Assembly: GCA_039794085.1 (NCBI GenBank)
Contig: JBDIWC010000087.1
Span: 1 to 11,469 of the forward strand
DNA: 11,469 nt
Reading direction: 5' to 3'
Source: Gemmatimonadales bacterium
Lineage (GTDB): Bacteria; Gemmatimonadota; Gemmatimonadetes; Gemmatimonadales; GWC2-71-9
In this document: piece after piece, positions 232 through 11,350 of the stretch
Numbering within the stretch: position 1 is the stretch's first letter
Layout of the letters: every line of letters starts with the position of its first letter
Program-made: the position numbers and the translations under genes
Notes under the pieces: generated by a model
Told to the model about the DNA's origin: nothing
The model's database searches: none
What the model saw: only the letters and a program-made list of their open reading frames with translations

Positions 232-711
232 TCAGGCCACCGGCAGCGCCTCGAGGGCGGCCCGAAGCTCGCCCATCGGCAGAGCCCCGTTCGGATTGGC
301 ACCCGCATGGACGAACCTCACGACGTGGTGCGCATCGGTGAAGATGGTGCCCGATTCCTGAATCAGACCGAGCTTCCGGGCAAAACCAACTCCCTGGAAG
401 ATCACCCGCTCTTCGTCACCCAGAATCGGGAAGGGGCTCGTGAGAAGACGAGTCACCCGCTCGGCGGCCGATGTTGATCCGGGACCCGCCGCCACGACCC
501 GAATCCCGGCCGCCGCGAATTCCGCGTGTGCCCGCCCCAACTGGGCGGCGTGCCAGAGGCACTGCGCTCAGGTGAAGGCCCGGAGCAGGAAGAGCACGAG
601 CCCGCGGCCCGCCGGTTGGCCCTCGGGAACGGCCAGCGGGCCACCCGCCGCGAAGAGGACGTGGGGAAGGGTGTCACCCACGGCGATGCGGGTCGTACGA
701 GAGGTATCCAT
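232..711 (-). CDS. AhpC/TSA family (peroxiredoxin-like, thioredoxin-fold) selenoprotein, 159 aa, Sec at codon 48 (UGA at 570-568)
   Basis: ATG at 711 is preceded by AGGA. Translation is MDTSRTTRIAVGDTLPHVLF...GLVLFLLRAFT-UGA-AQCLWHAAQLGRAHAEFAAAGIRVVAAGPGS..., in frame with ORF 232..540. The UGA sits exactly at the first Cys of the CxxC motif, and a SECIS-like hairpin follows. Confidence 0.85.
532..548 (-). promoter_or_regulatory. Candidate bacterial SECIS hairpin
   Basis: Minus strand reads CCGCCC-AGTTG-GGGCGG. The loop begins 25 nt after the UGA and has G at its second position, consistent with the general bacterial SECIS model. Confidence 0.6.
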
Positions 712-860: not shown

Positions 861-902
861 CTCCTTCGAACTTCAAACTTCGAACTTCGAACTTCAAACT
901 TC
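861..902. repeat. Heptamer tandem repeat (NNNCTTC x6)
   Basis: ctccttc gaacttc aaacttc gaacttc gaacttc aaacttc; contains the coxG-like stop codon at 896-894. Confidence 0.9.
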
Positions 903-1346
903 CACGGCGCTCCGTTCCGCAAAATCGTTCCAGAACTTTTCGGTGAAGAGACGAGCCGCCCCGCCCAGCATCTCCGGGCCGAGGCGGGCCAGCGGGCCGC
1001 GAATCTCGGTCGTGGCCTCCCAGCGGAGGAGAACACTCCCGGGCCCCGTCTCCTCCAATTCCACCGTGGAGCGGACGTCGATCTCGGATCCCTGCACGGT
1101 GCCCCGCAGCAGAAGGCCCGCCCGATGCGGTGCCACCGGATCGATGATCTCGGCGTCGAGTACCAGACGCAGGGCCAGGATCCCGAGGCCCACCGATGAG
1201 TGAATCCGGAACCGGCCCTCCGCGATGCGCTCCACCGACTCCATCCCCGGAGTCGATTGCGCCACGACATCGGGATCCATCAGCCGGTCCCAGACCTGAA
1301 GCCGAGTGGCGGAGATGGTGGGCGTGCCGTGGAAGGAAAGGCGCAT
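894..1346 (-). CDS. coxG: CoxG / SRPBCC (START-like) family protein, 150 aa
   Basis: MRLSFHGTPTISATRLQVWDRLMDPDVVAQSTPGMESVERI...IRGPLARLGPEMLGGAARLFTEKFWNDF fits the CoxG pattern (VW..L.DP..L..C.PG and G.LA.LG). The ATG at 1346 is preferred over 1436 because the family N-terminus starts here. No coxLMS genes are in the window. Confidence 0.8.
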   Translation of the reverse strand: MRLSFHGTPTISATRLQVWDRLMDPDVVAQSTPGMESVERIAEGRFRIHSSVGLGILALRLVLDAEIIDPVAPHRAGLLLRGTVQGSEIDVRSTVELEETGPGSVLLRWEATTEIRGPLARLGPEMLGGAARLFTEKFWNDFAERSAVEV

Positions 1347-1480
1347 GGGTTTCGATTGCGAGAGGAACGATTTAGGGTTCATGCCATGAACAATTCTCCC
1401 GGAATGGTAATGCCCCCCCGCCAGCCCTCCTACCATCGTGGAAGCGACCGACTCGGCAGACCCGGAACGAGCGTGACGCC

Positions 1481-2932
1481 GTGACGCGAACCCTGCACGC
1501 CGAACTCGCCCAGTTGCTGCCGCCCGCGGTGCAACTTGCCCTCGACTACGTTGCGGCCCTCGACGATCCGGCCACCCCGGTGGTCGACCATCGGCCCCCC
1601 GACGCCCTGCGGGAGGCGCTCTGTCTGTCCCTTGACACTCAGGGTCGCCCGCCTGAGGCCGTGCTGGCCCAGGCGAGGGCGGTGCTCGAGCACAGCGTCC
1701 GCACCGGTCACCCCCGCTTCTTCAACCAACTATACGGCGGCGTCGACCCCGCCGGCATTCTCGGCGAATGGGTGACGGCCCTGGCGAACACCTCGATGTA
1801 CACCTTCGAGGCGGCACCTGTGGGCACGCTCATGGAAATTGAGCTGATGGCGAGGATGACCCGACTGGCGGGTTTCACCGCGGGCGAGGGGATCTTCGCT
1901 CCGGGAGGAAGCATCGCCAATCTCATGGCGGTTCTCGCCGCTCGGCACCGGGCCTTTCCCGAGTCGAAGCGCCGGGGTGTGTCAGGGCTCGCGGATCCGG
2001 TCATTTTCCTGTCCGCCGAGGCGCACTACTCGACCCCGCGGGCCATGAGCATCGCGGGATTCGGTTCGGAATCGGCCATTCCTGTGCCGGTCGATGCCGT
2101 GGGCCGCATGAAGCCTGACGCCTTGGAGGTAGCCATCCTCTCCGCGCGCGCGGAGGGCCGGATGCCCTTCCTGGTGGTGGCAACCTCGGGGACCACCGTG
2201 CCCGGCGTCTTTGATCCGATCGACGCCATCGCCGACATCACCGAGCGGCAGGGGCTCTGGCTCCATGTGGATGCCTCCTACGGCGGCGGTGTGCTCTTCT
2301 CCTCCAGGCACAAGCACCTCATGGCCGGATCCCACCGGGCCGACTCGATCACCTGGAACCCGCACAAGATGATGGGGCTCCCCCTCGCCTGCGCCACGAT
2401 CCTGACCCGGGAGCGCGGGGTGCTCGAGGCCACCAACGGCATGCATGCCGACTATCTCTTCCATGACTCCGGGGGCCCCACCTGCGATCTCGGCGATCTG
2501 AGTCTCCAGTGCGGGCGCCGGGTGGACGCCTTCAAGCTCTGGCTTTCCTGGATGGCACTCGGCGACGACGGCTACGCCCGCCGCGTGGACCGGCTCTTTG
2601 AACTGGCGGGGAAGTTCCGTGACATGGTGGCGGATCGGGAGGGATTCCACCTGGTGCGGGAACCGGAAGGGACCAACGTCTGCTTTCGCTACCTCCCCCC
2701 GCGGGAGACGCTCACCGGCGAGGCCCGCGTGCGCCGGGAGCATGAGCACACCGTGGCCATCCGCCGCCGGTTGCTGGAGAGCGGCCGGTTCATGATCAAC
2801 TACGCGACGCTGGACGGAGCGGCCACCTTCCGGATCGTGATGAACAACCCCCGCGCCACCGAGGCCGACCTGATGGCCCTGCTCGATGCGATCGTGGAGT
2901 TCAGCGCGGCGACGGGTCGGGACTCTCCATGA
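1481..2932 (+). CDS. Group II PLP-dependent amino-acid decarboxylase (CSAD/GADL1/GAD-like), 483 aa
   Basis: Motifs TGHPRFFNQL, PGGSIAN, GTTVPGVFDP, WLHVDASYGG, WNPHKMM (PLP lysine codon 2366-2368) and QCGRRVDAFKLW. Confidence 0.93.
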   Translation: MTRTLHAELAQLLPPAVQLALDYVAALDDPATPVVDHRPPDALREALCLSLDTQGRPPEAVLAQARAVLEHSVRTGHPRFFNQLYGGVDPAGILGEWVTALANTSMYTFEAAPVGTLMEIELMARMTRLAGFTAGEGIFAPGGSIANLMAVLAARHRAFPESKRRGVSGLADPVIFLSAEAHYSTPRAMSIAGFGSESAIPVPVDAVGRMKPDALEVAILSARAEGRMPFLVVATSGTTVPGVFDPIDAIADITERQGLWLHVDASYGGGVLFSSRHKHLMAGSHRADSITWNPHKMMGLPLACATILTRERGVLEATNGMHADYLFHDSGGPTCDLGDLSLQCGRRVDAFKLWLSWMALGDDGYARRVDRLFELAGKFRDMVADREGFHLVREPEGTNVCFRYLPPRETLTGEARVRREHEHTVAIRRRLLESGRFMINYATLDGAATFRIVMNNPRATEADLMALLDAIVEFSAATGRDSP

Positions 2933-3566
2933 GATGGAGCAGGTGGGCCGGGTCCGCAAACCAGTGATCCGGGGTGGTCGCCTCCAGCACGGCACGGCTG
3001 AACGGTCCCCAGAGGGCGGCTCCGGTGGCGGTGCCGGCCGCCCGTCCCGCCAGCATGTCGTGCGGGCTGTCTCCCACGAACAAGGTGTCGCGGGCGTCGA
3101 TGCCGGTGGCGGCCAGCGCGGCCAGCACCGGCTCCGGGTCGGGTTTGTGACGGGAGACGGAGTCGGCCCCGATGATGATCTCCATCGCATCCTCCAAGCC
3201 CACGAGCCGAAGCCCCCGTAGCGCGCCTGAGCGATTCTTGCTTGTGACGATGCCGAGCCGGGTTCCGGAGGCCTGCAGCGACCGGACCACCTCGACGATG
3301 CCGGGGTACACGGTAACCCGGGAGTCGTGATGCTCCAGATTGTACTCCCGATAGGTCGCGATCAGCTCGGCCATGCGAGCCTCATCCTCCGCCCAGGCGC
3401 TGAACTGCGCCCGGAGTGGCGTGCCGAGACCTTCCAGCCACTCGGCGTCGGTCCGAGCGGGAAGACCGTGCACCGCCATGGTGTGGTGATAACTGTCGAG
3501 AATGAGGCGGACTGAATCGATCAGGGTGCCGTCGAGATCGAAGAGGACGGAGCTGTATCGTGACAT
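2901..3566 (-). CDS. HAD-superfamily hydrolase, subfamily IA (PpaX/phosphoglycolate phosphatase-like), 221 aa
   Basis: Motif I LFDLDGTLIDS, motif II IVTSK, motif III KPDPEP, motif IV FVGDSPHD. Converges on the decarboxylase with a 32-bp overlap. Confidence 0.93.
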   Translation of the reverse strand: MSRYSSVLFDLDGTLIDSVRLILDSYHHTMAVHGLPARTDAEWLEGLGTPLRAQFSAWAEDEARMAELIATYREYNLEHHDSRVTVYPGIVEVVRSLQASGTRLGIVTSKNRSGALRGLRLVGLEDAMEIIIGADSVSRHKPDPEPVLAALAATGIDARDTLFVGDSPHDMLAGRAAGTATGAALWGPFSRAVLEATTPDHWFADPAHLLHLMESPDPSPR

Positions 3567-3720
3567 GCCCGAACCTAGCGGATCTCCCGTCGGCGGAACA
3601 GGACCGGTGGTTCATCCGGGTTTCGTGTGGGTGAGGGAACTTCAACCGGCCGTTTCCAGGGGCTCTTCAGGCCTTCCGGCGGTTGGATTTCGGGGTGAGG
3701 TGAGGGGCTCCGGTGGCCAG

Positions 3721-3953
3721 GCGGGTGGGGGAATGGCCACAAGAGGCACAAAAGGCACAAGAAGCCACGGGACCCTGCGGAGGGGTGACGAACCGGGCGG
3801 ATGTCTACGCTGTGCCTTTTTGTGTTTCTTGTGCTTTTTGTGGTTGACCCTCGAGTGAGACGGAGTGGTCCGCCGGTCAAGCGGGTGGGGCAATGGCCAC
3901 AAGAGGCACGGAGGGCGCAAGGGGCACGCGATCCCGCGGAGGGGCGACGAACC
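3721..3953. repeat. 9-nt-periodic inverted-repeat element (about 3735-3845) plus a direct partial duplication (3721-3794 vs 3881-3953)
   Basis: GGCCACAAGAGGCACAAAAGGCACAAGAA is answered by TGTGCCTTTTTGTGTTTCTTGTGCTTTTTGTGGTT. GCGGGTGGGG(G/C)AATGGCCACAAGAGGCAC...GCGGAGGGGYGACGAACC recurs 160 bp downstream. Confidence 0.8.
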
Positions 3954-4033
3954 AGCTGAGCCTGAACCCATGCCAAAGCCTGAAGAAACGGACCGGTTTG
4001 CAGGAACCGGCCCCGCCGGTTGATATTGCGCCG

Positions 4034-4891
4034 ATGCCGTCCTTTGCCCCCCTCCCCGAACTCCTGATCGAACCGGTGGTCCGTGCTGCCCTCCTGGAGG
4101 ATCTGGGACGCACCGGCGATCTCACCACCTCCTGCCTCATCCCCCCGGATATCCCGGCACGGGGCGCCATCGTGGCCCGCGAGGCCGGGGTGATCGCGGG
4201 TGTCGGGGTGGCCGCCCTGACGTTCCGCCTGCTCGATCCCACGGTCGAGTTCGAGCCCGTCGTGCCCGACGGAGGGTCGGTATCCGCGGGGCAACCGGTG
4301 GTTCGCCTGCGCGGCCCCGCCGGCTCCATCCTCACGGGGGAGCGGGTGGCGCTCAACTTCCTCGGGCGTCTCTCCGGGGTCGCCACCGCCACTCGGCGCC
4401 TGGTCGACGCCGTCCGCGGCACCGAGGCGCGGATCGTCTGCACCCGGAAAACCACTCCCGGACTCCGGTCCCTGGAGAAGTACGCCGTCCGCGCCGGGGG
4501 CGGCCGGAACCATCGCTTCGGCCTCGACGATGGGATTCTGATCAAGGACAACCACATCGCCGTGGTCGGCTCGGTGCTGCGGGCGGTGGAACGGGCCCGC
4601 GAGCGCGCGGGGCACATGGTGCGGATCCAGGTCGAGGTCGACTCGATCGAACAGTTGCACGAGGCCCTCGCGGCGGGCGCGGACGCCGTGCTGCTCGACA
4701 ACATGACGGTGTCGCAGCTGGCCGAGGCGGTGACCCTGATTGCGCGCCGAGCCGTGACCGAGGCCTCGGGCGGGGTCACCCTCGATCGGGTGGCCGCCAT
4801 CGCCGCCACGGGGGTGAACCTGATCTCCAGCGGGGCCATTACTCATAGCGCGCCGTGGCTTGATGTTGGGTTGGACCTCAATGAAGTTTGA
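4034..4891 (+). CDS. nadC: Carboxylating nicotinate-nucleotide diphosphorylase (quinolinate phosphoribosyltransferase)
   Basis: Motifs ALLEDLG..GDLT, GERVALNFL..LSGVAT, TRKTTPGLR, NHRFGLDD.ILIKDNH, EVD, LLDNM, EASGG and G.ITHS. The ATG at 4034 is chosen because the longer 3893 start runs through repeat DNA. Confidence 0.96.
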   Translation: MPSFAPLPELLIEPVVRAALLEDLGRTGDLTTSCLIPPDIPARGAIVAREAGVIAGVGVAALTFRLLDPTVEFEPVVPDGGSVSAGQPVVRLRGPAGSILTGERVALNFLGRLSGVATATRRLVDAVRGTEARIVCTRKTTPGLRSLEKYAVRAGGGRNHRFGLDDGILIKDNHIAVVGSVLRAVERARERAGHMVRIQVEVDSIEQLHEALAAGADAVLLDNMTVSQLAEAVTLIARRAVTEASGGVTLDRVAAIAATGVNLISSGAITHSAPWLDVGLDLNEV

Positions 4892-5160: not shown

Positions 5161-5188
5161 CTCCTTCACACTTCGAACTTCAATCTTC
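5161..5188. repeat. Degenerate heptamer repeat (NNNCTTC x4)
   Basis: ctccttc acacttc gaacttc aatcttc; contains the helicase stop codon at 5168-5166. Confidence 0.65.
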
Positions 5189-7376
5189 CAAACGCCACCA
5201 CTCCCACCACCTCCACCCGGGGCGTGATCACGACCTCGCGCTCCGGGAGAGTGGCTGTCCACGCCGGCAGCCGCGACGCGGGAAGCGCCAGCAGTTCCGT
5301 GAGCCACGGCTCCTCTCCCGCCGTGTGACCCCGCCGCACGAAACTCACGGCGGATCCGATCGCGGCCACCATGCGGTGATCCCGGGCCCGGGCCGCCTGC
5401 TGGCCGAGTCGGAAGAGCCGGGAGAGAAGAACCCCCCGCGCGCCGTCTCGCGCCAGCGGCCAGTGACGGGCATGCATCTCGCGCGTCGTCCGGGCCACCG
5501 GATCCGCCACCAGGCGCGCCACCGTTCTCATGAGCGCCGGGGAGGGCATCGGTGCGGCTGGACGATCCGCCCGGGTGAGAGCATCCGAGACGGCGCGCAC
5601 CCCCTCGGTCCATCGTCCCTCGGACCACCACCAGCAGCGGCCACCGATCGTGCGCCCTCGGGCCTTCACCCGGAGGCCCAGCAGGAGCCCATCCGGGGCA
5701 TCGGGAATCCAGGAAACCCCCGAGTGCCAGGGACGATCCTGCCATTGCCGGGCCAGGGCGTCGCGCCATTGCCAGGGGGCCTCATCCTTCTCGCCGAGAC
5801 CCACGAGAGGGGGGAGGGACCGCTTCCGGTCCAGGATGGCGAGTTGACCGAGATGCTGTTCGATCTCCGGCGGAGGGTGAAACGCAATGACCTCCACGTT
5901 GGCATGCAGCGACCCGGGGCGATGGATACGTCCGGTGCGTTGCGCCATCCGGAGGGGCGACCAGGGCAGGTCATAATGCACCACTCGGCCCGCGCCCTGC
6001 AGGTCGAGCCCTTCCGACGAGACATCAGTGGTGACCAGCACCTCGCCGGGCGCGGCCCCTCCGCCGGGGCGGAATCGCTGGAGCACCGCGTCCCGGTCGC
6101 ACCGCAATGCGTCGACACCCGCCGCGCTCCCGGTGCACCAGTGGACGTGGGGCTTCAGATGACGGCGAAGCCAGGTCACCGTGGCCGTGCGGGTGGTGAA
6201 CACGATCGTCGCCGGACCGTCGACCAGCAGCGGACGGAGGCGAAGGAGCTTGTCGTCCGGTTCGGTGCAATGGGCCCCGACGGCGTCGAGCAGCGGGGCG
6301 AGCCGGTGCAGGTCGTCGAGCGGGAGGGTCACGGGTCCATCGTCTCCCAGCAACTCCCAGAGCAGGAGCTGCTCCGGTTCCTGCCCGAGCAGGCGATGCA
6401 GCTCCCGCCGAGTCACCCCACGTCCCGCCCGCGCGGCGTCGGCAGCATGCAGAAGAAGGGAGCGATAACGCACGAGGGCCATCCGGAGTGCCGCCGGACT
6501 CGAGGCAAGCGCGGTCCAGAAGGTGTGGCGCAGCAGGGAACGCCCCGCCTCGTCGCCGGTGCAGGCAAGGGTTGACACTCCCTGAATGAGGTCCCGGATT
6601 CCCGGCGGCACGGACCATGTCACCGTACGGTGGGCCGCCGGGGGCGCCGTCGGCGGAGGACCGGTGATGACCACCTCACCCAGCGCGTCCACCACTAGCG
6701 GCCGGGGGTGAGGGCTCAGGACCAGGTCGGGGAGCCCGGCGGGAGCCAGCGCATCGGTGGGGATGCCGAGTCGCAGTACCTGTCCGAGATCCTGGAGCCG
6801 GTTCACGACCGGAGTGGCGGTGAGGAAGAGGACCCGATGGCCGACGAGTGCGCGAGCCAACCGGCGGTACCGCTGGGTCCCGGGGTTCCGCAGTCGATGC
6901 GCCTCATCGACGATCACCAGTGGGTGCGGGGGCAGATGTTTCGGTCCTCGGCTGAACGACTCCATCGACAGGGCCACGATCGGCACCCCGGAACGATCCG
7001 CCACCTCGCGCCACTGGGGCAGCAGTACCGCCGGGGCCACCATGCCGACCGGTCCCGGGGCCAGGGCGCGTGCCACCGCCAGAGCGATCCAGGTCTTCCC
7101 ACTCCCCGTCGGGAGCGCCAGCATCGCGCCGCCGTGGCGATCGAGGGCGCCGAGTGCTCGGCGGAAGGGGAAGACCTGGGAAGGCCGGAGCCACGAGGGG
7201 GGGACGGCGTCGGGACGACTCACCGGGCGGAGCACCCGGGCGATGGCCGCCGCCACCAGCGCGGGGACCGCCTCTCCCGGGGGAAGGATGGTTCCGGTGA
7301 GGAGGTGCTCCCCGTCGCGGAGCGATTCAGCGACGAGAATGGGGGGCCGCAGAGCGGAGCGTCGCAAGAGTGTCAT
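5166..7376 (-). CDS. Superfamily 2 (SNF2/RapA-like) helicase/ATPase, 736 aa
   Basis: Walker A LPTGSGKT, DEAH, motif III LTATP, SEGLDLQ, HYDLPWSP, motif VI QRTGRIHR. GGAG lies just before the ATG, and the start overlaps the methyltransferase 3' end by 50 nt. Confidence 0.9.
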   Translation of the reverse strand: MTLLRRSALRPPILVAESLRDGEHLLTGTILPPGEAVPALVAAAIARVLRPVSRPDAVPPSWLRPSQVFPFRRALGALDRHGGAMLALPTGSGKTWIALAVARALAPGPVGMVAPAVLLPQWREVADRSGVPIVALSMESFSRGPKHLPPHPLVIVDEAHRLRNPGTQRYRRLARALVGHRVLFLTATPVVNRLQDLGQVLRLGIPTDALAPAGLPDLVLSPHPRPLVVDALGEVVITGPPPTAPPAAHRTVTWSVPPGIRDLIQGVSTLACTGDEAGRSLLRHTFWTALASSPAALRMALVRYRSLLLHAADAARAGRGVTRRELHRLLGQEPEQLLLWELLGDDGPVTLPLDDLHRLAPLLDAVGAHCTEPDDKLLRLRPLLVDGPATIVFTTRTATVTWLRRHLKPHVHWCTGSAAGVDALRCDRDAVLQRFRPGGGAAPGEVLVTTDVSSEGLDLQGAGRVVHYDLPWSPLRMAQRTGRIHRPGSLHANVEVIAFHPPPEIEQHLGQLAILDRKRSLPPLVGLGEKDEAPWQWRDALARQWQDRPWHSGVSWIPDAPDGLLLGLRVKARGRTIGGRCWWWSEGRWTEGVRAVSDALTRADRPAAPMPSPALMRTVARLVADPVARTTREMHARHWPLARDGARGVLLSRLFRLGQQAARARDHRMVAAIGSAVSFVRRGHTAGEEPWLTELLALPASRLPAWTATLPEREVVITPRVEVVGVVAFGRLKFEV

Positions 7377-10335
7377 GGTCTCCGGGGGAGAGGTTGAGGA
7401 AGGTTCCGGTCAGCTCGTCCAGGTCGTCCTGGGAGCGGCCGCTGTCCCATTCGGTGAGGGTGGGATCGCAGAGGACGGAGGCGGGGCAGGGGAGACTCGA
7501 CACCACGCGCGCATTGAACCGCCGGTATCCCGAGGCGGCGGGATCGGCCACGAGCGCCGCCAATGCGCGGATCCAGGTCGAGTTGAACCAGGCGGCGAGG
7601 GCCCGTGCCACCCGGCGAGGCGCCGGGATCAGGTAGCAGGTGTTGAGGGGGACGAGGGACCGCCCGGGGTCGAGCAGCACGGCGGCGCCCAGCTGCGGGG
7701 CGAGATCGGCCCACACCACGCAGGCCTCCGTGCGGAGCGACTCGGTCCGGAAGAGCTGCCAGAGTGGGCCGTCGCGGTAGTCGGCGCGCTTTCGGAGCGC
7801 CGTCTCATTTTCGGCGCAGTACGCGGCGGCCCGCCGGGGAAGCTGCGAGCGAACCCTCCCGTTCGCATGATAACCCCAGAGCAGCCGGACTCCGCCGGTC
7901 AGCGCGAAGGGACCCACATCCCGCCCGCGGATCGCGCGACGAATCACCGTGGGTTCCAGCGTGTCGGGAGGGTCGAGCAGGACGCGATTGCATCCGGTCT
8001 TCACGCCCAGGTGACAGCGCCACTGGTCCCCCACCGGGGGGCCCGACGCCTGGAGCCGCATCACCAGGTCCCTCATCCGGTCGGGGAGGAGGATCCAGGG
8101 ACCACCTCCCGAGAGATTGGTTTGGGAGACGCTCTCCTCGGGATACCCGAGGCCGGTGCGAACCGCATGCATCGCCGCAGGTGGCTCCCGGCAGGCCACG
8201 AGAGCCATTGGGTACACCGTCGCATCGAATTGGGCCCTGGGATCGCCCGTGAGATCGCTCGCCACCTCGAGCGTGGCCGACGCCGCCATCGCATGCCGCG
8301 CCAGGGTGGCATAACTCGCGGTCAGCAGCTTGCCCGGAAGCACGAACCCGACGATCCCTCCAGGACGCACGAGCTCGAACGCGCGCTGCAGGAAGGCGAT
8401 GGAGAGATCGGGCTGGTGACGGTACCCTCGCGTGCCCGGTCCCGCTGTCCACCAGCGGTACCGCCCCCGCAGGCGGTCCCGCTCGGCACGCGACAACGAC
8501 TCGGCTCGCACCCATGGCGGATTGCCGACCACCAGGTCGAAGCCTCCCCGGCTCTCCATTGTGTCGGCGAACTGCACCGCATAATGGAACCAGGGAAGTT
8601 CCCCGGTGAGCCGGAGCCGTTGCCGGAGGAGGCGCACCTCCCGCCTCTTCTGTCGCGCATCGGCCAGCGCCTGCTGGAGGGAGGGAGACCGCACCGTCTC
8701 CCCGAAGAGATCGGGTGACTGCACCGCCGCATGGAGTTCGGTGATGCGGTCCGACCAGCGCCGCTCGGTGTCCGCCAGCAACGCCTTCCAGACCGCGATC
8801 TCCGCCGACCGCAGGGCGCGCACCGCGGGGCGTCTCTCGGGTCCGTGTGCCTGCTCCAGGGACCCACGGGCCTCGATGAGACGGGAAATGGCGGAGCGGG
8901 GAAGTCCCGCGGTCACCAGATCGGCCGGTGCGAAGAGAGAATCGCCCTGCCGGATGGCGCCATCGAGGTTGGGTAGCGGGAGCAGGAGGTCGGGGCCCAG
9001 GTCGGCATCGCCGGTGAGCAGCTCGAGCCAGAGTCGGAGTTCGGTGAGCCGGACGGCGTTGGGGTTCCGGTCCACACCATGGAGCGAGGAGGCGAGGATG
9101 CGCCGCCGTCGCTGCGCCAGGGAGAGGGGCTCGGGGTCGAGGCCGGAGAGGCGGCGCAAGGCGGCCACCAGGAAGGCGCCCGATCCCACCGCGGGGTCGA
9201 GGATCCGGATGTCCCGCATGACGGAACGGACCACGCCGTCGGGATTCAGGAGACGGTCCTCCGCCTCCCCAAGCGGGATGCTGAGACGGCGGGAGAGCCA
9301 GGCTGCCAGGGCGTCACCCAGGAGCGCATCCACCAGAGGGGGTGGCGTGTAGTACGTCCCCGAGGCATGCCGCTCCTCGGGATCCATCACCCCTTCGAAC
9401 ACTCGGCCGAGCATCTCGGGGTCCACGCTCTCGGGTCCACCGGCGAGTCCGGTGAAGTGGTAGCGGAGAAAGAGATCGTCAAAGGCGTTCCGCCACTGTT
9501 CGGTGGGAATGACCACCGGCCAGCGGCGCTCGATCGTCTGGCGCTCGAACAGACCGCCGTTCAGAAAGGGGAGGGGGCCAAAGCCCCGGGCGCGCCGGGC
9601 CCGTCGTTCCGGCGGCAGGTTGAAGGTGCCGAAGAAGAGCGGGTCCAGCACGTCCTTCTGCAGGTCCCCTCCCTGGCGGAGGCAGGTCTCGAGCAGCTCC
9701 GCCAGGAAGGCGGGACGGCCGTCGAGCCACCCGCGGGCCTGCACGAAGTGGAGAAAGAGAATGCGGGTGAGCTGGAGCAGGACCAGTTCATGACGGATGG
9801 AGACGGGTACCCGGACGGGAAGGGCCTCCCGCATGTCGACAAGCGTGGTGCGGAAGGCGCGGAAGAAGCGGTCGCCGAGAGGGAGCGTGGCGAGTGCATC
9901 GGCGATCCGGCGGAGCCGGGTCAGGGGATGATCGGATCCGTCCCCCTCTCCCCGGTTGCAGCGGGCCAGCACGGCGAGGTCATCGGGAGTGGGGCGGGAG
10001 AGGGAGATGGTGCGGACCTCGATGCGCTCGAGGCCCGCCGCCAGGGAGAGGGTCCCGCCGTCAGGGGCGAGGGCCACCACGAGGGCGTACCGTCCGCAGC
10101 GCCGCAGGTGTCTGGCTACGCGGCGCGCATCGGCGGCGGGACGCGACGATGCGAGGCCGATGCACCAGAGGTCGTCTCCCTGGCCCACCACGGCGCTCGC
10201 CGAGATGGTGGGGGACACCGGTGTCCAGTGGTCCCCGGGGAACGGCTCCCAGGCCCACTGGAAGCCGAGTGATTCCGCGAGCCGGGGGAGGTCGTTGAGG
10301 GACCGGACGTGCCGGAGGTCGATGGAGCGGGACAG
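7327..10335 (-). CDS. Large N6-adenine DNA methyltransferase (Eco57I/TaqI-like, gamma class). Start uncertain: CTG at 10335 (1002 aa) or GTG at 10218 (963 aa)
   Basis: PFLNGGLFE, DPEMLGRVFE, GTYYTP, motif I ILDPAVGSGAFL, motif IV FDLVVGNPPW (NPPW at 8523-8512), and a C-terminal TaqI-C-like target-recognition region (GVKTG, LNTCY, NSTW). The frame stays open upstream to a TGA at 10371-10369. Confidence 0.9.
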   Translation of the reverse strand: MSRSIDLRHVRSLNDLPRLAESLGFQWAWEPFPGDHWTPVSPTISASAVVGQGDDLWCIGLASSRPAADARRVARHLRRCGRYALVVALAPDGGTLSLAAGLERIEVRTISLSRPTPDDLAVLARCNRGEGDGSDHPLTRLRRIADALATLPLGDRFFRAFRTTLVDMREALPVRVPVSIRHELVLLQLTRILFLHFVQARGWLDGRPAFLAELLETCLRQGGDLQKDVLDPLFFGTFNLPPERRARRARGFGPLPFLNGGLFERQTIERRWPVVIPTEQWRNAFDDLFLRYHFTGLAGGPESVDPEMLGRVFEGVMDPEERHASGTYYTPPPLVDALLGDALAAWLSRRLSIPLGEAEDRLLNPDGVVRSVMRDIRILDPAVGSGAFLVAALRRLSGLDPEPLSLAQRRRRILASSLHGVDRNPNAVRLTELRLWLELLTGDADLGPDLLLPLPNLDGAIRQGDSLFAPADLVTAGLPRSAISRLIEARGSLEQAHGPERRPAVRALRSAEIAVWKALLADTERRWSDRITELHAAVQSPDLFGETVRSPSLQQALADARQKRREVRLLRQRLRLTGELPWFHYAVQFADTMESRGGFDLVVGNPPWVRAESLSRAERDRLRGRYRWWTAGPGTRGYRHQPDLSIAFLQRAFELVRPGGIVGFVLPGKLLTASYATLARHAMAASATLEVASDLTGDPRAQFDATVYPMALVACREPPAAMHAVRTGLGYPEESVSQTNLSGGGPWILLPDRMRDLVMRLQASGPPVGDQWRCHLGVKTGCNRVLLDPPDTLEPTVIRRAIRGRDVGPFALTGGVRLLWGYHANGRVRSQLPRRAAAYCAENETALRKRADYRDGPLWQLFRTESLRTEACVVWADLAPQLGAAVLLDPGRSLVPLNTCYLIPAPRRVARALAAWFNSTWIRALAALVADPAASGYRRFNARVVSSLPCPASVLCDPTLTEWDSGRSQDDLDELTGTFLNLSPGDHDTLATLRSAAPHSRR

Positions 10336-10508: not shown

Positions 10509-11331
10509 TCAGGGCGCAGGCAGCGCATCTTCCAGACGAAGATTGACAACCCGGTAGCCGAAAACAGTGAAACCATCAACCTGCCCAACGCTCTTGAACT
10601 GAAGTCGATTGAGCGCGGGCCAGTATGCCGTCGCATGACGGTAGTCGGGCGAGCCCGCGAGAGTGCGAAGGTAGTAGTTGTGATGCGTCGCGTAGAGGTT
10701 CGCCGCAAATATGTCCGAGAGTTGGAGGCCAACTGTGAGGCGTGAGTCGGCAAAGAGTGGCGCCTCAAGAATGTTGGTGAAGGTTCTGCCGGTGGTGTGG
10801 CCGAAAATGTAGCTCATGTGTGATCGGGCGACCTCGCCATCCAGGCCGGCAATACCACGCATGCGAGAGTCACAGGCCAGGATTGCGTTCTGATATGTTT
10901 GGCTTTCGGCGACGAAAAGGCTGATTCTTTCCACCAGGATCTGGAGCGCCTTGGGTGTAGAGGCTTGTGGCTGAAATTGGATCGACGGCACTCTTGAGGA
11001 ACGTCGCAGCGAAGGTACGACCACCACAGCGATCGATGAAGTCAATGGCGCGCCGGTTGAAGGCCTGCCGACGGGTGCTGGTTCGCTGGTGGGGGCCGGT
11101 GAGGTCCCTTCCCTTTACCTCGACTTCCTCGTCCCGACGACCAAGGCGGCCCATCTTGTCCGGAAAGAAATGGCGCTTCAACCGAAGATACTCCCTGTCC
11201 CTGTGTCGCCAGTCGTTCAATGGCAGGGCGACTGCCGCCAGGACGAAGAGAGGCGTCTCCCCGCTGCGAAGGGGCTCATGATGCCGGGCGGGATTCCCGG
11301 CTTCATCAACGTAGATTACGGCAGTCGTCAT
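10509..11331 (-). pseudogene. DUF3800 domain protein split by a +1 frameshift at 10953-10955 (about 273 aa if repaired)
   Basis: The N-terminal half MTTAVIYVDEAGNP...LFVLAAVAL...EVKG lies in ORF 10870..11442. The C-terminal half KALQILVERI...FADSRLTVGLQLSDIFA lies in ORF 10509..11045. The N-terminal DE and C-terminal QxxD motifs are the DUF3800 signature. The junction reads TAC ACC C AAG GCG. Confidence 0.8.
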
Positions 11332-11350
11332 GCCATGAGGACCTAAGGAA

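Follow-up and report, generated by a model that had tools for sequence, protein, structure and literature searches.

A predicted peroxiredoxin-like selenoprotein with a UxxC site, split by gene callers, in a Gemmatimonadales genome

The gene and its in-frame UGA codon

The minus strand of the window (the whole stretch of 11,469 nucleotides analysed here) very likely carries, at positions 232 to 711, an intact gene in which an in-frame UGA serves as a selenocysteine (Sec) codon and which gene callers cut in half. Its product is predicted to be a peroxiredoxin-like (Prx-like) selenoprotein with a BCP/AhpE fold. The 159-codon frame runs from 711 to 235, contains a single in-frame TGA, at codon 48, and is closed by a terminal TGA at 234-232. 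The original prediction had described an ATG at 711 with an AGGA in front of it, 47 sense codons, a TGA and then GCG CAG TGC with the frame staying open, and the sequence agrees in every particular. Following the minus strand, the AGGA (720-717), a possible ribosome-binding site, is separated by a 5-nt spacer from the ATG; the 47 codons (571 to 711) lead to the TGA (570-568), predicted to encode Sec48 on the basis of the TGA/Cys column in homologues; and GCG CAG TGC opens a run of 111 sense codons in total before the stop. The AGGA is absent from a relative with 85% identity (locus L009). The read-through product has 159 amino acids and the site LVLFLLRAFT-U-AQC (R44-A-F-T-U48-A-Q-C51), in which Cys51, encoded by the TGC at 559-561 and conserved in homologues, is predicted to act as the resolving partner in UxxC. 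The 102-aa open reading frame (232-540) that had been proposed as the downstream half is indeed in frame after the UGA; its TTG start (538-540), however, is actually Leu58 of the read-through protein, a false start inside the loop of a predicted hairpin described below.

The segment upstream of the UGA, which comprises the N-terminal strands, a core strand (residues 37-42) and Arg44, had been expected to show homology of its own, and it proved to be both homologous to relatives and coding. Under a codon model trained on the genome the 47 codons score 12.7 bits, which is what coding 47-mers reach on average (12.7) and what about 1% of off-frame windows attain. The Pfam family PF00578 (AhpC-TSA) is matched with 32.7 bits with the read-through and 20.3 without it, the cut-off being 26 and the query sequence having had one additional terminal residue. 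Promoter and terminator scans returned no sites, an Rfam scan of the window gave no match, and no signal peptide or membrane segment was evident by eye in the protein sequence.

Genome searches covering 61 relatives, 401 genomes of the phylum and 401 of the order recovered nine genes of the family, the present one included (G000, G001, G003, G158, G165, G172, G287, G438 and G540). These genes come from three families of the phylum, the proteins of the six that were aligned are ~30-86% identical, and all nine have TGA in the codon-48 column and keep Cys51. The RNA run X1 holds a contig with a tenth relative, which has no listed difference over 530-600; the run itself (5% of words) was set aside as evidence of expression, its contig being from a ~90%-identical relative and of flat depth. 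A TGA in G014 was left out of the family count, as it precedes a BCP gene.

A HMMER search yielded 232 relatives, and the homologue counts are from the best 150 of them. The expectation that Cys would occupy the UGA column in homologues was borne out in 87 of the 90 that cover it, the other three having Ser; Cys51 and Arg44 are each present in 88 of these 90. As many as 53 of the best 150 matches begin at query positions 49-70, among them 16 at 49 and 16 at 58, and seven more are other pieces. One of the seven, a separately called 47-aa protein of a relative (P0018), ends exactly at Thr47, and the proteins P0039 and P0170 are identical to the C-terminal parts of UGA genes that we read in the genomes. 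The original claim of a 159-aa selenoprotein split or truncated by standard callers is supported. The remaining N-truncated fragments would also derive from Sec genes. The closest named relative is a Gemmatimonadales genome with a syntenic copy, 85% identical; others belong to Longimicrobiales, Anaerolineales, Aggregatilineales and Chloroflexia, and relatives of the Cys form are named "redoxin domain-containing protein" or "peroxiredoxin family protein". Thirty-six weaker genome loci, when read, proved to be BCP, AhpE-like, TlpA, SelL-like or other subfamilies, with no Cys-form family member among them; a scan of metagenome contigs gave one locus, outside the family; and a plasmid search with a Cys-form protein returned 15 records at E 7e-12 or worse (ResA, BCP, TlpA and generic redoxins) and no DNA of a Cys-form member. 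Two loci seen along the way belong elsewhere: a paralogue in the host's own genome (L017, G000:C53:22562-22831) with an R-x-x-x-C-x-x-C site, that is, a Cys form of another subfamily, and a different PF00578-type gene (L039, G303:C1:1654035-1654430) whose in-frame TGA falls within W-U-P-F-C, representing a second UxxC subfamily.

The host was predicted to encode the Sec machinery, and its genome (4.16 Mb, 94.7% complete) does contain selA, selB and selD, each above its curated cut-off, together with a tRNA-Sec scoring 69.3 bits against a gathering threshold of 47; selD carries an in-frame TGA of its own. Co-occurrence of Sec genes discriminates little, because selA is found in 320 of the 401 genomes of the phylum sample, a tally that takes in two unpublished genomes (G099 and G185), which enter the phylum tallies alone. 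Genus g53 is mostly without selA (1/15). All nine carriers of the family gene have a selA match over the cut-off and eight have one for selB, and tRNA-Sec is present in all five other carriers examined. In carrier G003 (690 contigs, 91% complete) selB is matched only partially, with nothing at the cut-off, tRNA-Sec is present, and the selA frame (L066, G003:C612:18400-20400) is closed by a TAG at about position 396 of the 455 in the model, short of its end.

When the 98,070 TGA triplets in the six frames of the host genome were screened, 314 showed coding signal on both sides. Five of these allow a UxxC reading, and three of the five also have a SECIS-like hairpin: the gene studied here, a PrdB/GrdB-like gene, and one more that looks like an ordinary gene junction. 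The screen is incomplete, because selD itself was missed. Of nine other candidates from the same genome, seven match NCBIfam families that include known selenoproteins and two match nothing. The likely selenoprotein genes of this kind are those for SelD, an FdhA-like protein, a PrdB/GrdB-like protein (UxxC), a SelW-like protein (CxxU), a TxxU peroxiredoxin and two AhpD-like proteins (CxxU), with coordinates C4:72190, C14:41528, C13:25056, C4:48243, C9:48266, C36:26693 and C43:20232 in G000.

Two other accounts of the UGA have to be set against this evidence. The gene might be a nonsense pseudogene, or the real product might be a 102-aa protein started at the TTG at 540, with the 47 codons as debris, and the many C-terminal pieces in databases could be cited in its favour. 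Yet the TGA falls in the catalytic column in nine genes from three families of the phylum, the upstream codons reach the full coding score, and the pieces are devoid of the active site, two of them being exact truncated calls of UGA genes; we hold this account to be highly improbable. A genome-wide reassignment of UGA to Trp, Gly or Cys has next to no chance of being right, being contradicted by the TGA that terminates 1031 of 1467 long training ORFs of the host, by the finding that the sole UCA-anticodon tRNA found there is tRNA-Sec, and by the gene's own stop, which is also TGA. Sec read-through at codon 48, as predicted from these sequence comparisons, is to our mind very likely.

The hairpin downstream of the UGA and its imprint

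A predicted bacterial SECIS (bSECIS) hairpin lies on the minus strand at 532-548, where a 6-bp stem (548-543 with 537-532) encloses the 5-nt loop AGUUG (542-538), which starts 25 nt after the UGA; its folding energy is -11.4 kcal/mol and it spans codons 55-60 (AAQLGR). It conforms to the bSECIS criteria as set out in PMC13188914: a loop of 3-9 nt, a stem of 4-16 bp, a spacing of 16-37 nt, G in the first two loop positions and an MFE <= -7.5. Across the nine genes, 51 of 54 cells are paired and three of the six pairs show two-sided (compensatory) changes, a level of covariation attained by 3 of 500 shuffles, which ignore kinship; slid controls reach a pairing of 43-61% only. With seven genes the covariation was not above that of shuffles (84/500), which likewise ignore kinship. 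The isolated hairpins of two relatives lie above the -7.5 kcal/mol threshold, at -6.5 and -4.4, and in G540 the loop reads GGGUC and the peptide AARVGR, with the stem retained. Taken alone the hairpin says little, because the surrounding 60-80 nt do not fold more stably than shuffled sequences (z -0.03 and -0.49) and a comparable hairpin occurs at 69 of the 314 coding-flanked TGAs. A second small stem, pairing the codons of Cys51 and His54, was discounted, the protein sequence probably dictating it.

The SECIS element seems to leave its imprint as the peptide "QLG" and as a rare TTG codon that callers take as a false start. At codon U+10, TTG or TTA is used in all eight cases of Leu, as against 19 of the 151 other Leu codons of the same genes; TTG makes up 6% of the Leu codons in the host genome, and of the 18 Leu codons of this gene none but the one at U+10 is TTG. 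At the protein level, all 23 fragments that cover columns 57-59 have QL and 15 of them QLG, compared with 16 and three, respectively, of 82 full-length RxxxCxxC proteins (both sets from the best 150 of 232 matches; one further full-length protein, the 83rd, was excluded for a gap). A quick tree built from the part beyond residue 62 (96 rows, 95 columns) is poorly resolved; several of its clades contain Sec genes and fragments alongside Cys forms, and some QLG-keeping Cys forms stand beside fragments. Such a pattern fits repeated exchange between Sec and Cys, the direction of which is not given by the tree.

Fold, active site and possible chemistry

A structure model built from 76 sequences, with Cys substituted for Sec, has a pLDDT of 93.6; in it strand 37-42 is followed by helix 49-60, and residues 48-51 lie where this helix begins. 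Its best fold matches are BCP/AhpE proteins (Z 16.7-17.3, rmsd 2.4-2.6 over 142-145 residues); human PGFS matches with Z 14.1 and rmsd 2.8 over 132 residues, and the core of deiodinase 3 with Z 12.1. In the alignment with AhpE, Arg44, Sec48, Cys51 and Ser120 stand where the peroxiredoxin site has Pro, Thr, Cys and Arg, and against both AhpE and BCP paralogues RxxxUxxC stands in place of PxxxTxxC/U. The distal Arg has a catalytic role in peroxiredoxins; in its column, Ser120 is invariant in the seven of seven Sec members. With Pro, Thr and Arg replaced by Arg44, Sec48 and Ser120, the peroxiredoxin triad is therefore gone. The description "AhpC/TSA-like" in the original prediction consequently holds for the fold and the Pfam family but not for the enzyme, the absence of the peroxiredoxin catalytic residues setting it apart from a true AhpC. 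Pro140 is near-invariant.

In PGFS an arginine, Arg40, lies four residues before Cys44 of the CxxC (completed by Cys47), and Cys44 has been proposed to reduce the endoperoxide (PMC12938796). The loss of the triad together with the analogy to Arg40/Cys44 leads us to favour Sec48 as the nucleophile, Cys51 as the resolving residue, Arg44 as the charge donor and a hydroperoxide as the substrate. SelB with Sec-tRNA would very likely bind the AGUUG hairpin, so that Sec is inserted at codon 48. The selenolate of Sec48, where helix 49-60 begins, would then, with high probability, be the attacking group, to be resolved by Cys51 to a selenenyl-sulfide. Arg44 might give the O-O bond a positively charged pocket, in the manner of PGFS Arg40, and thioredoxin or a small thiol might re-reduce the pair; this is the weakest step, for and against which the scales stand level. 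The chain as a whole, namely a predicted cytoplasmic Sec48/Cys51 redox enzyme assisted by Arg44 with a hydroperoxide as likely substrate, is by analogy a candidate to which we give an even chance. The substrate of the Sec/Cys pair is likely either a hydroperoxide or a disulfide.

The latter option corresponds to the same selenoprotein acting as a thioredoxin/TlpA-like disulfide reductase, in which Sec48 attacks a protein disulfide or mixed disulfide. The position of UxxC at a helix N-terminus and the near-invariant Pro140 suit thiol-disulfide exchange, proteins of the ResA, DsbE and TlpA types also match, and the class as named in PMC13188914 is "Prx-like thiol:disulfide oxidoreductase"; against this, BCP/AhpE peroxiredoxins outrank ResA in both fold and profile matches, and the protein shares with PGFS, an endoperoxide reductase, a conserved Arg that precedes the nucleophile by four residues. 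We regard disulfide reduction as a serious possibility on the unlikely side and favour the hydroperoxide chain over it. It is improbable that the protein is a variant peroxiredoxin with Cys51 as nucleophile and Sec48 resolving or activating it: Cys51 does align with the peroxidatic Cys of AhpE, and position 48 is Ser in three homologues (best 150 of 232 matches; P0008 is SxxC), but the activating Pro, Thr and Arg are replaced by Arg44, Sec48 and Ser120, and Sec usually sits at the attacking position. Some other chemistry, such as a deiodinase-like reductive dehalogenation or the handling of selenium or metals, is suggested by the model NF038285, "deiodinase family protein", which 15 of 76 family members match at E <= 0.001 (best 1.2e-8), and by the deiodinase 3 core match of the structure; since both deiodinase matches rank below the peroxiredoxin ones and are expected from the shared fold, we think it very improbable.

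Genomic context gives no pointer to the substrate: neighbours vary among the eight loci scanned and are conserved only within the genus, and the 10 longer homologues scanned show no informative fusion, the domains seen being a single cNMP-binding one and a single partial radical SAM one. In the window itself, 894-4891 encodes a CoxG/SRPBCC protein, a PLP-dependent decarboxylase, a HAD phosphatase and nadC, of which the first three are syntenic within the genus only. Just 3' of the gene, 21-230 holds an element of ~200 nt with 30-nt inverted arms, which has 105 blastn matches in the genome, some of them arrayed; 5' of the gene there is a second intergenic repeat (796-905) with a 7-nt tandem at 864-902 and 204 blastn matches in the genome. 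Further away, on the minus strand, two overlapping genes at 5166-10218 encode an adenine methyltransferase (963 aa) and a SNF2-like helicase (736 aa), which partly match DISARM DrmMI/DrmD and type IIG models, every NCBIfam score being under the cut-off; they are possibly a defence pair. A DUF3800 gene (10509-11349, minus strand) extends across two overlapping frames with a weak Pfam match in each, a split attributable to a frameshift or an assembly error near 10870-11045.

Significance and relation to known families

The class to which the protein belongs is already known, because PF00578 selenoproteins with UxxC have long been catalogued: PF00578 UxxC, PF08534 UxxC and cd02970 UxxS families are on record in Table 1 of PMC13188914, WP_010940744.1 being the listed representative of the Prx-like UxxC class and HEU0032618.1 another published one, and the GOS survey reported 225 "Prx-like 1" PF00578 UxxC selenoproteins in ocean samples (PMC2398784). 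Our gene thus probably represents a subfamily of a known selenoprotein class that has no fitting NCBIfam model. We found no paper in the literature on the subfamily itself; supplements, BSepDB records, and Haft and Tolstoy 2025 lay outside the scope of the search and may include it. Term counts in the main text of a 2026 review and of the BSepDB paper gave no instance of "Gemmatimonad". A bolder reading, for which we would put the chances slightly short of even, is that of an uncatalogued subfamily spread over multiple lineages (RxFT-U-xxC-xxH-xx-QLG) that combines a BCP/AhpE scaffold with Sec/Cys chemistry, in which "QL(G)" would be the mark of the SECIS, about one third of the database representatives would be truncated and the Cys members that keep QLG would be recent Sec-to-Cys reversions. 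If this were true, the use of Sec could be read from the protein sequence alone.

The case entails no new kind of recoding and no new fold. It does correct a repeated error of database annotation, as the 53 of the best 150 (of 232) matches mentioned above start just past the Sec column and no fewer than two of them are proven truncated calls of UGA genes, and it supplies a ready alignment for the missing family model. It also offers a compact natural example of a SECIS within a coding region constraining both the sequence of the protein and its use of codons, with compensatory changes, and it presents a Gemmatimonadota genome in which eight or more genes likely encode selenoproteins, selA being common in the phylum.

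Compared with known systems, the protein resembles the Prx-like thiol:disulfide selenoproteins, as far as these are described in PMC13188914, in its PF00578 score (32.7 against 26), the single Sec in UxxC, the many Cys homologues and the bacterial SECIS inside the coding region; it differs from that class, to which it is likened by Pfam score and motif, in the signature R-x-[FY]-T-U-x-x-C-x-x-H-x-x-Q-L-G. The redoxin (PF08534, UxxC) and cd02970 (UxxS) selenoproteins listed there share the fold clan, but the PF08534 score is 19.1 against a cut-off of 26.6, and the motif is UxxC, not UxxS. The SelL-related model NF040769 is the sole NCBIfam match of the protein and is matched by all 76 aligned members (best E 2.7e-23), the protein's 38.9 bits falling below the cut-off of 120. 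BCP/PrxQ, AhpE, AhpC and Sec-Prx (TxxU) provide the closest folds (Z ~17) and the closest solved sequences (E 2e-18); unlike true peroxiredoxins, our protein has R-x-x-x-U-x-x-C for P-x-x-x-T-x-x-C and Ser120 for Arg, and unlike in Sec-Prx, its Sec takes the position of the Thr rather than the peroxidatic one. The best mechanistic analogue is human PGFS (PRXL2B, PDB 9us9), which at 19% identity has the thioredoxin fold in common and likewise carries an Arg four residues before CxxC (R40/C44/C47 versus R44/U48/C51); the bacterial protein departs from it in having Sec instead of Cys and, in place of Arg41, Ala45, this position being Ala or Glu in all nine UGA genes.
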